The notes below the pieces were generated by a model that was not told the DNA's origin, made no database searches, and saw only the letters and a list, made by a program, of their open reading frames with translations. From Escherichia coli (lineage in GTDB: Bacteria > Pseudomonadota > Gammaproteobacteria > Enterobacterales > Enterobacteriaceae): a stretch of DNA of 64,000 nucleotides. Position 1 is the first letter of the stretch, and each line of letters begins with the position of its first letter. Both the position numbers and the translations under genes were made by a program. Positions 1,279-13,907 of the stretch are shown in pieces. The stretch is from assembly GCF_003334305.1 (NCBI RefSeq), contig NZ_QOWS01000010.1, one strand, 5' to 3'.

Positions 1279-2598
1279 TTAGTGAGCGCTGGAGGTCACC
1301 TGACGACCTGCCGCGCGATCCCAGATAATGGCCAGAACCACCATCACCACTGTTGGCATTAACCACGCCAGACCTTGTTCGGCCAGCGGTAAACGCTGCG
1401 CCCAGGACGGTAAGATATCGCTGAATGCAGATGCTTTGATCCCGTCGAGAATACCAAAAAGCAGGCTGATAAACATCGGCGGAGCAATCACGCGGGACGA
1501 ATTATGCCACCATGAGCGTGTAAAACTTAATACAACCAGTGCGATACACGGCGGATAAATAGCGGTCAGCACCGGTACGGAGATCTGGATCAGCTGGCTT
1601 AAGCCGAGGTTAGAAACCACCATCGAGAAGCCGCCGAGGATAAACACCAGCGTACGATAAGAGAGCGGTACGTACTGGGCAAAGAATTCTGCACAAGCAC
1701 AGGTCAGGCCAACTGCCGTTACCAGGCAGGCGATGAAGATTAACGCCGCCAGCAGGAAGCTACCGCCGCCGCCAAAGGTGTGCTGAACGTAAGCATGCAG
1801 AATAGCAGCGCCGTTTGCAGACTGATCGACCAGCGACGCGCTGTCTGAACCCAGACGGAACAGCGCCAGGTACAGCAGAGTCAGACCAACACCCGCCATC
1901 AGGCCAGCCCAGACGGTATAACGGGTCAGCAGACGCGCTTCGGTAACGCCACGAGAACGCGCCGCGTTAACAATAACGATACCAAACACCATTGCGCCCA
2001 GCGTATCCATGGTCAGATAGCCGTTAACGAAGCCGTTAGAAAACGCAGCGTTTTGATAAGCCTCAGTCGCCGTGCTGATAGAACCCGCCGGCCAAACAAT
2101 CGCGGCAACAGACAGGATGACCAGCGCGATAATTTTCAGCGGCGCAAGGAAGTTGCCCACGGTATCCAGCAGCTTGCCCGGATAGAGCGAAACCAGAATA
2201 ACGATAGCGAAATAGACCAGGCTGTAGATAAACAGCGGCAGCGCGGAATCACCAGTCAGCGGCGCAATCCCCACTTCAAAGGAAACGGTAGCTGTACGCG
2301 GCGTAGCGAAAAGCGGCCCCACCGCCAGGTAACAAACCGTTGCCAGCAGCACGCCAGCGACTTTACCGATTGGCGTGCTGAGGCTGTCAACACCGCCGCC
2401 AACTTTTGCCAGCGCCACTACCGTTAATACCGGCAGGCCAACGGCAGTAATGAGGAAGCCGAATGCCGCAGTCCAGACGTGTTCGCCTGCCTGCAAGCCG
2501 ACCATTGGAGGGAAAATAATGTTACCTGCGCCGACGAACAACGCAAATGTCATAAAGCCCAGAGCGATGATATCGCGCGATCTTAATTGATGGGTCAT
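1279..2598 (-). CDS. brnQ: Branched-chain amino acid transport system II carrier BrnQ
   Basis: 439-aa ORF, polytopic membrane protein, recognised as BrnQ; position between proY and phoR as in E. coli. Confidence 0.93.
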
Positions 2599-2948
2599 AA
2601 ATCATACTGCCTGTGGATGTGGTGTTGTAACGTTAAATTTTTGTGCCAATCCCTGGGGATGATACAGCGGTATATTTAAACAATTTTAGCGGGAAATACT
2701 CCCAACCAGGCGCGGCGAAGAATAGTTTTTCGATTTACCGCGTTAATGCAGTCAGTATGACAGCACCTGAAGCGCAATTTAAACGCTTATAACGTTTTAA
2801 AGCAAGGAGGGATCTAAAAACCAGAGGTATATAGCGATAAGAAATCACCAACCAGTATAAAACACTATTTCCGTGAAAAAGACATGGCTAATCATGCGAA
2901 CAAAAAATCACCAACCGTTGTAAAATCTAACGCCCGTATTTTGACTGC

Positions 2949-2977
2949 AAAGAAAATAAGCCAGCATCGGCTGGCTT
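2949..2977 (-). terminator. Putative intrinsic terminator downstream of phoR
   Basis: Perfect 8-bp stem AAGCCAGC/GCTGGCTT with 4-nt loop at 2958-2977, followed on the minus-strand transcript by a U-rich run (ATTTTCTTT). Confidence 0.55.
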
Positions 2978-3004
2978 ATGGCAATAAAAGATGACAAAGG
3001 CGGA

Positions 3005-4300
3005 TTAATCGCTGTTTTTGGCAATTAAACGTTCCGGGATAACAAAACTGAAACGTGTTCCTTTTCCTACTGTACTCTCAATATTCAGGCGACTTTCGTG
3101 ATGATTCACAGCATGTTTCACGATCGCTAACCCTAATCCGCTACCGCCGGTTTGCCGGGAACGCGCTTTATCAACGCGATAAAAACGCTCGGTCAGGCGC
3201 GGAATATGCTCCGCTGCAATGCCCGGTCCGTTATCTTCAACGCTAAATTCGGCACCGTGCGGCACTCGCTGCCAGCGTACGGTGATATGCGTGCCTTCTG
3301 GAGTATGATTCACGGCGTTATAGACCAGGTTCGAAATCGCACTGCGTAGCTGATCTTCGTTGCCAGACACTTTGAGGCCGTTATCTATCTCAAAGGTAAA
3401 TGTCTGTTTTTTCTGACTCAGAGTCTGAGCCTCACGCTCAACAACGCGCAGCATCATCGGCACATCAACCTTTTCATTGAGCAAATGCGTCGGTGCGGCT
3501 TCTATTTTCGACAGCGTCAGCAACTGCTTCACCAGCCCTTCCATCCGCTGGGTCTGCTCGCGCATGGTGTGCAACGCTTTTTCGCGTACCGCGCCTTCCA
3601 GCGGCTGCTCATCCATCATCTCCAGGTAACCCTGTAACACGGTCAATGGCGTACGTAACTCATGGCTCACGTTGGCAAAAAAGTTACGCCGCGCCCCTTC
3701 CAGTTGATGCATTTGCGTGACATCACGCGCCACCATCAGCAACTGTTTGTGGGTATAAGGCATGACGCGAATTTCCAGATGCCGCCCGGTGTTGAGCACC
3801 AGATTGAGCGGGCGAGAAAAATCACGCGTTTTCAGATATTGCGTAAACTCCGGGTAACGCAGCAGGTTAAGGATGTTCTGCCCGTTATCTTCCGGCCAGC
3901 GCAAACCAAGAATCTGTTGCGCCAGACCGTTACACCAGAAAATACCGCCCTCTTCCGTGGTCAGCACCACTGCGTCGGGCAGCGACTCCGCGCCGCTACG
4001 AAAGCGTTTAATCAGATTGCCCAGTTCACGGCGGCGTTTTTTATTTCGCAGCTGCATCTGGTGTAAGCCGTATAGTAGCGGTTCCCAGCTACCACGCCCC
4101 GGTGGCGGGGTCATACTACGATCCACCCACAGCCACCATGAAAGGCGCAATAAATTCCAGAAATGCCAGATAAGCAGTCCCGTTACCGATGCCAGCAAAA
4201 ACCAGGGCAGGTAACCAAAAAATGCACCCAGGATGAAAGCCGGGAGGCAGCAAAGTAACAGCTCCAGCACCAGCCTTTTCCACGACAGCCGTTCCAGCAC
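3005..4300 (-). CDS. phoR: Phosphate regulon sensor histidine kinase PhoR
   Basis: 431-aa ORF; N-terminal membrane anchor, histidine kinase motifs (HELRTPL), ATPase domain; adjacent to phoB. Confidence 0.95.
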
Positions 4301-4357
4301 GTAAGATACTCCAGTTAAGAAATCATAAGCCCTGCTCTGCGTCCGATGAGCAAGGCG

Positions 4358-5047
4358 TTAAAAGCGGGTTGAAAAACGATATCCTGTACCGCGCACGGTC
4401 TGCACCATGCGGTCATGCCCGCCGGGCTCCAGTGCTTTACGCAGGCGACGAATGTGGACATCGACCGTGCGGTCTTCCACATACACGTTAGTTCCCCAGA
4501 CGTGGTTTAACAGCTGCTCGCGGCTGTACACGCGCTCAGGATGCGTCATAAAAAAGTGCAGCAGTTTAAATTCTGTCGGCCCCATCTCCAGCGGCTCTTC
4601 GCCCGCCATCACCCGGTGAGATGTCGGGTCGAGACTTAATCCCTGCATCTCAATCACCTCTTCCACCGCCATTGGCGAAATACGGCGCATTACCGCTTTG
4701 ATTCGCGCCACCAGCTCCTTCGGCGAAAACGGCTTGGTGATATAGTCATCCGCGCCGGTTTCAAGGCCGCGCACGCGATCTTCTTCTTCCCCTCTGGCGG
4801 TCAACATCACCACTGGAATATCCCGGGTCATCGACTCGCGCTTGAGGTGTTTGATGAACTGGATACCGGAGCCGCCAGGTAACATCCAGTCAAGGAGAAT
4901 TAAATCCGGCCAGGGTTCATTCAGTTGATTCACAGCACTGTCATAATCTTCCGCTTCGACCGGCTGAAAGCCATTTTGTTCGAGCACGAAGCAGACCATT
5001 TCGCGAATTGGAGCTTCATCTTCTACGACCAGAATACGTCTCGCCAT
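4358..5047 (-). CDS. phoB: Phosphate regulon response regulator PhoB
   Basis: 229-aa ORF, receiver domain plus OmpR-type winged helix; recognised as PhoB. Confidence 0.96.
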
Positions 5048-5083
5048 GATTTGCCCTGTTGTAATAAATAGGTTGCGATCATT

Positions 5084-5127
5084 AATGCGACGTCATTATG
5101 CGTCAGATTTATGACAGATTTATGAAA
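5084..5127 (-). promoter_or_regulatory. Pho boxes of the phoBR promoter
   Basis: Minus-strand reading gives TTTTCATAAAT CTGTCATAAAT CTGACGCATAA TGACGTCGCAT, tandem 11-bp PhoB direct repeats (CTGTCAT-type) upstream of phoB. Confidence 0.75.
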
Positions 5128-5236
5128 AGCTCGTCGCACATATCTTCAGGTTATTGATTTCCGTGGCGCAGAAAAAAGCAAATGGCACATCTGTTTGGGT
5201 ATAATCGCGCCCATGCTTTTTCGCCAGGGAATCGTT

Positions 5237-6439
5237 ATGCGCATCCTTCACACCTCAGACTGGCATCTCGGCCAGAACTTCTACAGTAAAAGCCGCGAAG
5301 CTGAACATCAGGCTTTTCTTGACTGGCTGCTGGAAACAGCACAAACCCATCAGGTGGATGCGATTATTGTTGCTGGTGATGTTTTCGATACCGGCTCGCC
5401 GCCCAGTTACGCCCGCACGTTATACAACCGTTTTGTTGTCAATTTACAGCAAACTGGCTGTCATCTGGTGGTACTGGCAGGAAACCATGACTCGGTCGCC
5501 ACGCTGAATGAATCGCGCGATATCATGGCGTTCCTCAATACGACCGTGGTCGCCAGCGCCGGACATGCGCCGCAAATCTTGCCTCGTCGCGACGGGACGC
5601 CAGGCGCAGTGCTGTGCCCCATTCCGTTTTTACGTCCGCGTGACATTATTACCAGCCAGGCGGGGCTTAACGGTATTGAAAAACAGCAGCATTTACTGGC
5701 AGCGATTACCGATTATTACCAACAACAATATGCCGATGCCTGCAAACTGCGCGGCGATCAGCCTCTGCCCATCATCGCCACGGGACACTTAACGACCGTG
5801 GGTGCCAGTAAAAGTGACGCCGTGCGTGACATTTATATTGGCACGCTGGACGCGTTTCCAGCACAAAACTTTCCACCAGCCGACTACATCGCGCTCGGGC
5901 ATATTCACCGCGCACAGATTATTGGCGGCATGGAACATGTTCGCTATTGCGGCTCTCCCATTCCACTGAGTTTTGATGAATGCGGAAAGAGTAAATATGT
6001 CCATCTGGTGACATTTTCAAACGGCAAATTAGAGAGCGTGGAAAACCTGAACGTACCGGTAACGCAACCCATGGCGGTGCTGAAAGGCGATCTGGCGTCG
6101 ATTACCGCACAGCTGGAACAGTGGCGCGATGTATCACAGGAGCCGCCTGTCTGGCTGGATATCGAAATCACTACTGATGAGTATCTGCATGATATTCAGC
6201 GCAAAATCCAGGCATTAACCGAATCATTGCCTGTTGAAGTATTGCTGGTACGCCGGAGTCGTGAACAGCGCGAGCGTGTGTTAGCCAGCCAACAGCGTGA
6301 AACCCTCAGCGAACTCAGCGTCGAAGAGGTGTTCAATCGCCGTCTGGCACTGGAAGAACTGGATGAATCGCAGCAGCAACGTCTGCAGCATCTTTTCACC
6401 ACGACGTTGCATACCCTCGCCGGAGAACACGAAGCATGA
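5237..6439 (+). CDS. sbcD: Nuclease SbcCD subunit D (Mre11-like)
   Basis: 400 codons from ATG 5237 ([12 protein letters not shown]..., calcineurin-like phosphoesterase motifs); upstream in-frame extension of track ORF 5195 judged non-coding. Confidence 0.9.
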
Positions 6440-12064: not shown

Positions 12065-12976
12065 ATGCTGTGGTTCAAAAATTTAATGGTTTACCGTCTT
12101 AGCCGCGAGATTTCGCTGCGTGCAGAAGAGATGGAAAAACAGCTAGCCTCGATGGCATTTACCCCATGCGGCAGCCAGGACATGGCGAAGATGGGCTGGG
12201 TTCCTCCGATGGGATCGCACAGCGATGCGTTAACGCACGTTGCCAATGGTCAAATTGTTATCTGCGCACGCAAAGAAGAAAAAATCCTCCCGTCTCCGGT
12301 GATTAAACAGGCGCTGGAAGCGAAAATCGCCAAACTGGAAGCGGAACAGGCGCGTAAGCTGAAGAAAACCGAAAAAGATTCGCTGAAAGACGAAGTGCTG
12401 CACTCTCTGCTGCCGCGAGCTTTCAGCCGTTTTAGCCAGACAATGATGTGGATCGACACGGTTAATGGTTTGATTATGGTGGACTGCGCCAGCGCCAAAA
12501 AAGCGGAAGATACGCTGGCATTACTGCGTAAAAGCCTGGGGTCGTTACCTGTTGTACCATTGAGCATGGAAAACCCGATTGAACTGACGCTAACCGAATG
12601 GGTTCGCTCCGGTAGCGCAGCACAGGGCTTCCAGTTGCTTGATGAAGCCGAGCTGAAATCGTTGCTGGAAGATGGCGGCGTGATCCGCGCGAAGAAACAA
12701 GATCTGACCAGCGAAGAGATCACCAATCACATCGAAGCCGGAAAAGTGGTGACTAAACTGGCGCTCGACTGGCAGCAGCGCATTCAGTTTGTGATGTGCG
12801 ACGATGGTTCGCTCAAGCGTCTGAAGTTCTGCGACGAGCTGCGCGATCAAAACGAAGATATCGACCGTGAAGATTTCGCCCAGCGTTTTGATGCCGATTT
12901 CATCCTGATGACTGGTGAACTGGCAGCGTTAATTCAAAACCTGATTGAAGGATTAGGTGGCGAAGCACAACGTTAA
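12065..12976 (+). CDS. rdgC: Recombination-associated protein RdgC
   Basis: 303 codons from ATG 12065 ([18 protein letters not shown]...). Confidence 0.9.
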
Positions 12977-12994
12977 TTGCTGATTTTCCTTTAA

Positions 12995-13033
12995 TGCCGG
13001 ATGCGACGCCTGCCGCGTCTTATCCGGCGTACG
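12995..13033. repeat. REP element downstream of rdgC
   Basis: TGCCGGATGCGACGCCTGCCGCGTCTTATCCGGCGTACG palindromic unit. Confidence 0.75.
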
Positions 13034-13133
13034 ATGCCACACCAGGCATATAATTATTCGCTACGGCGGGCAATAATTTTTAGCGCAGCAATATTATGCG
13101 TTTTATGCTGTAACTTGCTCCATGGACGTTGTG

Positions 13134-13415
13134 TCATTGTTTTTCCTCAAGCCAGTGACGCGCTTCACTGCGAATTTTCCGCATTGCCCCGGTTTTCACT
13201 AAATCCCGTAACAGCGAAAGATCGGGTTGTTCGACAAATAAGAGTAATGATGGATCCTCTTTTAACCACGTCGTTTTCACATCGGCAGCGAGCTGTGGAT
13301 TATTCATAGCTAGCGACCGATGCCGAGACTCGGTCAATGTCGTTAACAACGACGCCGGGGTATGTGCGTTGCGTAATGCCGTTTGGCGCAAATGATCATT
13401 GCGACTTTGCAGCAA
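13134..13415 (-). CDS. ykiA: Small hypothetical protein, probably YkiA; TTG start, possibly a degenerate gene
   Basis: 93-aa ORF between rdgC and ppnP on the expected strand; non-repetitive charged composition; start codon TTG and no convincing SD. Confidence 0.4.
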   Translation of the reverse strand: MLQSRNDHLRQTALRNAHTPASLLTTLTESRHRSLAMNNPQLAADVKTTWLKEDPSLLLFVEQPDLSLLRDLVKTGAMRKIRSEARHWLEEKQ

Positions 13416-13622
13416 TGCACGCCACCATTCATCATCTGATTTATCTTTTATCGTAGCCAGTTCCGCAACAATATCTGGAGATCTTCACTGATATTTATAT
13501 CAACCTTGATGAATTATGAATATATCGGAAATTGAAAAAATCGCAGCAAAGGAAATATTATTATGGGTTAAAGAGAGGATATTTCAGAAAAATGCCCTCC
13601 CGTTCAAGGGGAAGGCGAGGAA

Positions 13623-13907
13623 TTACAGATAGCGACACAGATAAGAGGTGGGTTCGGCAACTTGCAGATGAAACTCACTGTGACCGGGAACATTAAACAC
13701 CGAACCGGCTTCATACACCTGCCAGTCGGTCGCGTCAGGCAGTAACACATTCAGCGCGCCACTGATTACCGTCATCTCTTCCGGCTCAGCGGTGCTGAAG
13801 GTGTATTCGCCTTCAACCATAACACCCACGCTGGCGCGACCAGTGCTGCTGCTGGAAAAGCCGATTGATTTCACTTTGCCGGAAAAGTACTCATTACTTT
13901 GAAGCAT
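13623..13907 (-). CDS. ppnP: Pyrimidine/purine nucleoside phosphorylase PpnP (YaiE)
   Basis: 94-aa [20 protein letters not shown]..., cupin-like small protein. Confidence 0.9.

Follow-up and report, generated by a model that had tools for sequence, protein, structure and literature searches.

The 93-codon open reading frame (ORF) between rdgC and ppnP is, with high confidence, a dead gene fragment, i.e., the tail of a DUF2773 gene that was left behind by a deletion and now drifts neutrally. It is part of ykiA (b0392), an E. coli pseudogene that has already been catalogued, and does not represent a gene with a weak start. The original prediction had offered two readings, namely gene decay or a small protein with poor expression. 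The former is borne out, since the ORF is a 3' remnant that covers the final 15% of a 759-residue gene from which the start codon and the first 646 codons were deleted. The latter finds no support, given that the TTG is conserved as an internal Leu codon (TTG/TTA) in intact genes and that the starts chosen by annotators disagree.

Within the window, i.e., the whole stretch of 64 kb that was analysed, the gene order is mak, rdgC, [ykiD, ykiA], ppnP, aroM, yaiA, aroL. The interval of the ORF is flanked by rdgC (12065..12976, plus strand) on one side and by ppnP (13623..13907, minus strand) on the other. The ORF listing agrees with the original prediction with regard to length, strand and first codon (93 codons, minus strand, TTG, 13134..13415). 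It contradicts the assertion that this was the only sizeable ORF between rdgC and ppnP, as an antisense ATG ORF of 102 codons (13001..13309, plus strand) exceeds the flagged one. We considered this antisense ORF as an alternative gene and discarded it, because its frame is broken in most of the other alleles, which makes it almost certainly spurious. It begins within a REP-type palindromic element (12982..13029) that is located between the stop codons of rdgC and ykiD. The element was matched by the Rfam family naRNA4, a REP-derived family, with 27.8 bits compared to a gathering score of 59.5. Beside this sub-threshold REP-like match, the Rfam search of positions 12900-13700 reported no RNA family.

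The full remnant spans positions 13134..13475 (minus strand), comprises codons 647-759 plus the stop codon of the ancestral DUF2773 gene and corresponds to b0392 of MG1655 (408609-408950). In the RefSeq annotation of MG1655, ykiA (b0392) has the status of a pseudogene and ykiD (b4732) comes next. For remnants of the 13134..13475 type, PGAP states 'incomplete; missing N-terminus' in each of the remnant strains that were retrieved, and the next feature is a 27-codon gene that is named either ykiD or "hypothetical protein". The K-12 version of the 93-aa TTG ORF is found in Swiss-Prot as 'PUTATIVE PSEUDOGENE: Putative uncharacterized protein YkiA'. That is, the reading as a decaying gene is already known from reference annotations.

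The original prediction had also noted a protein-like composition. This impression was correct, because the ORF is former coding sequence. The BLASTP alignment places the remnant (113 aa) at residues 647-759 of the intact 759-aa protein with 90% identity, and the remnant matches Pfam DUF2773 (PF10971) over model positions 1-81 of 81 (E = 9.4e-41). Homology to the ancestral gene runs 60 nt upstream of the TTG, up to position 13475, and an in-frame TGA at 13487..13485, located at the deletion junction, closes the remnant frame upstream. A tblastn search of the whole 64-kb window found no other part of the 759-aa protein. Compared to a full-length DUF2773 gene, which is recognized by its start codon, signal peptide, N-terminal beta-helix and complete solenoid, the remnant falls short, as it holds codons 647-759 only. 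What it does show are the features of a truncated pseudogene, i.e., partial homology to an intact gene at the same position, a lost start and definable deletion junctions.

Judging from the alignment with intact genes, the TTG is not a true start but an internal codon that specifies Leu667 in the 759-aa ancestral protein. In this column, intact E. coli genes show TTG and Escherichia sp. E4930 shows TTA. The combination of a TTG 'start' with no real ribosome-binding site arises because the ORF finder takes the first in-frame ATG, GTG or TTG after the junction stop. With regard to the Shine-Dalgarno (SD) sequence, the statement that none is present was too strong, since a GGTGG (13426..13422) stands 6 nt before the TTG. 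It holds in so far as this GGTGG is no translation signal, because it is formed by the TGG TGG (Trp-Trp) codons of the ancestral frame (...DDEWWRALLQ...). Its predicted pairing with the anti-SD amounts to -4.9 kcal/mol and contains an internal mismatch. Taking every ATG, GTG and TTG triplet in the window, about 14% are preceded by pairing as good as that of GGTGG, and the real neighbouring genes show values from -3.1 to -9.7. Furthermore, the starts that submitters assign to the remnant differ (57, 72, 80 or 93 residues), and this inconsistency is due to the fact that no true start exists. At 13305..13307 (minus strand), i.e., at codon 37 of the ORF, the window allele has ATG (Met) and the others have ATT (Ile). 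Some annotations of the window-type allele call a 57-aa 'YkiA' (P0277, 170 contigs) because of this allele-specific ATG.

An intact locus between ppnP and rdgC is present in O157:H7-type strains (L003) and in the pig isolate LHM10-1 (L011). In L003, it consists of a DUF2773 gene (3031-5310, minus strand, 2280 nt, 759 aa) and an SF0329-family gene (2585-3034, minus strand, 450 nt, 149 aa), where the stop of the former and the start of the latter overlap as ATGA. Two deletions are defined by the blastn alignment of the window to L003, since it falls into three collinear blocks, namely 12900-13115 with L003 2424-2640 (98.2% identity), 13107-13475 with L003 3004-3372 (94.6%) and 13481-13700 with L003 5312-5531 (96.8%). 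The remnant itself aligns to L003 3031-3372 (blastn, 94.6%).

The first deletion covers about 1.94 kb (L003 3373-5311), i.e., the DUF2773 start codon and codons 1-646. Its junction (13476..13487, minus strand) reads TGAAGAT (13487..13481), followed by an unmatched CTCCA (13480..13476). TGAAGAT stands just 5' of the ancestral ATG, and its counterpart inside the DUF2773 gene is TGAGGAT. A search for long direct repeats flanking this deletion found short microhomology only. The second deletion comprises 363 bp (121 codons), is in frame and lies inside the SF0329 gene. Its junction (13106..13115, minus strand) coincides with a 10-nt direct repeat of the intact gene, AGTTACAGCG / AGTTACGGCG. We examined 8 distinct remnant alleles, among them that of K-12, and both junctions are present in each.

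These observations suggest the following course of events. The ancestral ppnP-rdgC interval held two co-oriented genes, encoding a 759-aa, putatively exported protein and then a 149-aa SF0329 protein. On the way to most present-day E. coli, the first gene lost its start codon together with codons 1-646 when about 1.94 kb were deleted at a 7-nt microhomology, and a 363-bp in-frame deletion between the 10-nt direct repeats cut the SF0329 gene down to the 27-codon ykiD. What is left of the first gene is 13134..13475, i.e., codons 647-759 without a start codon.

The direction of change was assessed using outgroup loci, from which we infer that the long form is the ancestral state. Escherichia sp. 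E4930 carries a full-length DUF2773 gene at the same position (73% identical), and a more distant enterobacterium retains the order ppnP, DUF2773, SF0329, rdgC, with identities of 87% for PpnP (to that of the window), 31% for DUF2773 and 80% for SF0329. With E <= 0.001 as the limit, an exhaustive HMMER search yielded 169 representatives of the family. About 30 of these have a length of about 750-820 aa, with matches that extend over most of the query. The opposite polarity, i.e., an ancestral short form from which the 759-aa gene of O157:H7 arose by insertion or fusion, would agree with the short form being by far the commoner one in E. coli. Its probability is close to nil, however, since it is refuted by the full-length orthologues at the same position in E4930 and in the distant enterobacterium. 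It is also at odds with the roughly 30 full-length relatives (about 750-820 aa), which have one beta-helix plus solenoid architecture, and with a short form that has no start codon and shows a deletion-type microhomology at its junction.

Two further observations concern the outgroups. In the distant enterobacterium, the DUF2773 gene (L020 532-2799) encodes an exported solenoid protein that evolves far faster than its neighbours. In Escherichia sp. E4930 (L015 6270-6420), the intact DUF2773 gene is followed by a ykiD-like stump that shows the SF0329 junction of E. coli and an additional 18-nt gap in the alignment, while in O157:H7 both genes are intact. Either the deletion recurred at the 10-nt repeat or alleles were moved by recombination.

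To describe the distribution within the species, the rdgC-ppnP interval was compared by megablast with 5,426 complete E. coli genomes and detected in 5,425 of them. The K-12-like double-deletion remnant (at least 80% interval coverage) is found in 4,544/5,426 genomes (about 84%), and the intact two-gene module (at least 80% of the module) in 444/5,426 (about 8%). Some of the remaining genomes hold the SF0329 gene only, either intact or frameshifted, and in others almost nothing is left at the locus; whole-locus deletions occur in some strains (H30, H70). Only 2 of 342 sites distinguish the K-12 remnant from the intact LHM10-1 allele, while remnant alleles differ from each other by up to about 8%. 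The history of the locus is thus mosaic and recombining and not that of a single old clade.

We also compared the substitution pattern of the remnant with that of neighbouring genes. Here, eight strains that each carry a different remnant allele supplied the sequences of the remnant, rdgC, ppnP and aroM, and dN/dS was computed by NG86, which underestimates omega where transitions are favoured. The remnant shows a dN/dS of 0.61 (dS 0.059, dN 0.036), compared to 0.024 for rdgC (dS 0.064, dN 0.0015), 0.021 for ppnP (dS 0.054, dN 0.0012) and 0.106 for aroM (dS 0.090, dN 0.0096). The dS of the remnant lies within the range of the neighbouring genes (0.054-0.090), and its variable sites are spread over codon positions 1/2/3 as 12/11/16. 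The NG86 estimate is 0.61 and not 1; some of the divergence may predate the deletion. For variants that are confined to remnants, i.e., absent from intact alleles, we count 8 synonymous and 23 nonsynonymous changes. The resulting nonsynonymous share of 74% is to be compared with a neutral expectation of 68-75% (kappa 1-4). Binomial tests on these variants are in accordance with omega = 1 (p = 0.57-0.84) and reject omega = 0.33 (p <= 0.007) as well as omega = 0.13 (p <= 1e-7); the intact DUF2773 gene shows an omega of 0.12-0.13 between E. coli and E4930. That is, the remnant drifts neutrally. Strong purifying selection, which the original prediction had named as one of the outcomes that would refute it, was not found, given the dN/dS of 0.61 and the 8 synonymous versus 23 nonsynonymous changes.

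Further decay is visible as a +1 insertion near the junction in one lineage and a 3-nt deletion in another, and frameshifted remnant variants are present in public assemblies and protein calls. The TTG frame (92/93 codons) contains no stop in any of the 8 distinct remnant alleles. We rejected this as a sign of selection, since stop-creating changes make up only 3-5% of random substitutions such that about 1-2 stops are expected among about 30-40 variants, with a probability of about 0.2 to observe none.

Given this neutral pattern, a genuine but weakly expressed protein, i.e., one of 93 aa from the TTG or of 57 aa from the internal ATG at 13307, is very unlikely. The open frame in 8/8 sampled alleles, the transcription of the region in K-12 and the weak SD-like GGTGG 6 nt before the TTG can be read in its favour, as can the last few helices of the solenoid repeat that the sequence would form according to the structure model. 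On the other hand, TTG and GGTGG are an internal Leu codon and a Trp-Trp pair of the intact gene, and the ATG needed for the 57-aa version is specific to the window allele (ATT elsewhere). Annotators disagree on the start and frameshifted variants exist. Moreover, a 93-residue piece of a 520-residue alpha-solenoid that has no signal peptide would hardly keep its original role. We thus retain the interpretation as a neutrally drifting DUF2773 tail.

With regard to transcription, the ancestral promoter and 5' UTR region (13481..13593, minus strand) is retained and now joined directly to codon 647. A promoter scan reports a sigma70-like match CTGAAA-16-CATAAT at 13587..13560 (minus strand). Directly 3' of the ppnP stop codon, we observe an intrinsic-terminator-like hairpin followed by a T-run (13594..13616, minus strand), which would insulate the remnant from ppnP read-through. 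For K-12, the ppnP-ykiA intergenic fragment was reported to carry a BglJ-RcsB-activated promoter, based on promoter-lacZ fusions and 5'-RACE, and mutation of the binding site abolished the BglJ-RcsB activation of the ykiA promoter (Salscheider et al., PMC3950696). There, ykiA is listed as "unknown function (113 aa)".

The gene downstream, ykiD (13054..13137, minus strand), has 27 codons and derives from the 149-aa SF0329-family gene by an internal in-frame deletion. It joins the first 10 codons of that gene to the last approximately 17, and the ancestral frame is kept. Its ATG overlaps the ykiA stop (ATGA), and its SD sequence GAGGA at 13148..13144 pairs with -6.2 kcal/mol. Synthesis of YkiD in K-12 was detected by means of an SPA tag (VanOrsdel et al., PMC6001520). 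Between alleles, YkiD varies by R11H, T13K, K21R and R25C as well as in length (26 vs 27 codons). Taken together, the remnant is probably a transcribed, non-functional leader of ykiD, where the assignment for the window strain draws on the K-12 experiments and sequence conservation. In K-12, the ancestral BglJ-RcsB-dependent promoter has survived, the remnant is transcribed as the 5' leader of ykiD and ykiD, which has its own SD, is translated. The window strain would behave likewise, and the remnant ORF would have no function of its own.

It is also conceivable that the remnant was co-opted, i.e., that it forms a selected ykiD leader under control of the BglJ-RcsB promoter in which translation ending at ATGA delivers ribosomes to ykiD. 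Every allele retains the ATGA overlap together with the SD inside the 3' end of ykiA, K-12 produces YkiD, the promoter is kept and regulated, and the remnant state is found in about 84% of the genomes. The neutral codon evolution of the remnant is by itself no argument against such a leader role. Nevertheless, we consider the co-option improbable, since coupling is not needed given the good SD of ykiD itself, the YkiD sequence varies between alleles, the whole locus is deleted in H30 and H70, and the high frequency may simply mean that the deletion is old. We likewise attach little probability to the related possibility that the BglJ-RcsB-dependent transcript allows some low-level translation of the TTG ORF or of the allele-specific ATG sub-ORF, and that termination at ATGA boosts YkiD. 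If true, a decaying operon would have found a new use as a regulated gene for a small protein, and YkiD would be a micro-protein born of an in-frame deletion.

To characterize what was lost, we investigated the ancestral proteins encoded by the intact module. AlphaFold2, using an alignment of 32 sequences (31 relatives and the query), gave a confident model of the DUF2773 protein with pLDDT 90.9 and pTM 0.79, in which residues from about 65 to 176 are predicted to form a beta-helix and those from about 240 to 759 an alpha-solenoid. An N-terminal hydrophobic helix looks like a Sec signal peptide (...TGNACA/TEW). According to the model, the ancestral 759-aa protein would thus be exported and combine an N-terminal beta-helix with a long HEAT/LRV-like alpha-solenoid. 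Pfam DUF2773 matches the intact O157 protein at residues 679-759 only (E = 1.5e-39). In light of the predicted structure, it would be misleading to regard this family of 81 positions as a domain in its own right; it would represent the last helices of a solenoid of about 520 residues. The Pfam model coincides with the tail that is preserved in the K-12 pseudogene.

Foldseek comparisons with the PDB returned PP2A-A and importins, i.e., generic HEAT/ARM solenoids with TM scores of 0.1-0.3, and those with AFDB returned 'LRV' and 'HEAT repeat' proteins. Since only generic solenoids with low TM scores were found, no function can be transferred from these hits. Pfam HEAT and LRV gave no significant match in the intact protein, and NCBIfam gave nothing for the full-length DUF2773 protein. 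For both ancestral proteins, neither the PADLOC anti-phage defence families nor a sequence search of the PDB yielded a match. The gene neighbourhoods of distant DUF2773 homologues have no partner gene in common, so that the context provides no functional hint. Outside the window, E. coli O157:H7 encodes a paralogue of 770 aa (AFDB A0A0H3JEL4) with 27% identity and a TM score of 0.73; it was not found when sought among the cluster representatives. A0A0H3JEL4 carries the annotation 'DUF2773 domain-containing bactofilin', and fragments of it go under the name 'protein involved in detoxification of methylglyoxal'.

For the second protein of the module, the family assignment is clear: the intact O157 SF0329 protein scores 93.7 bits with NF049912 (cut-off 60) and matches PF25753 with E = 4.8e-22. 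The 27-aa YkiD of the window gave no match to the SF0329 family models, for which it is too short for a fair test. The 149-aa SF0329 protein shows 60-68% identity to proteins from Prevotellaceae, Paenibacillus, Bradymonadia, Zoogloeaceae and Leminorella, and the respective search produced 533 matches, all of which are PF25753. This cross-phylum conservation is unusually high for a protein without known function and suggests horizontal mobility.

The biological weight of the ORF itself is small, as it represents textbook gene decay that was flagged already in reference annotations. What our analysis adds is the identification of the 646 lost codons, both junctions with their microhomologies, the recognition of ykiD as an SF0329 stump and a quantification of the neutral drift. 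Furthermore, the BglJ-RcsB 'target gene' ykiA in K-12 turns out to be the readout of a promoter whose original gene is lost. Function is to be sought in the intact two-gene module, i.e., in the approximately 8% of complete E. coli genomes that include O157:H7.

Finally, we relate the window locus to known systems. With regard to LRV/HEAT-repeat alpha-solenoids, ancestral residues 240-759 are predicted to form a helical-repeat solenoid whose likeness is generic to the fold, and the remnant retains the last few helices only. Compared to the 759-aa protein of O157:H7-type strains (WP_120795310.1), the window shares the genomic position and the ATGA overlap with the downstream gene, while start codon, signal peptide, beta-helix domain and about 80% of the alpha-solenoid are absent. 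YkiD (b4732) is homologous to the SF0329 family (PF25753 / NF049912) at both ends only, as 121 internal codons are missing. The closest correspondence is with K-12 ykiA (b0392), which shows the same locus, both deletion junctions and the 93-codon TTG ORF, with 95.9% identity over 342 nt. The window allele differs from it by 14 substitutions, one of which (Ile to Met) creates the ATG at codon 37 of the ORF, and the exact window allele is also present in E. coli H15 and Shigella boydii Sb227.
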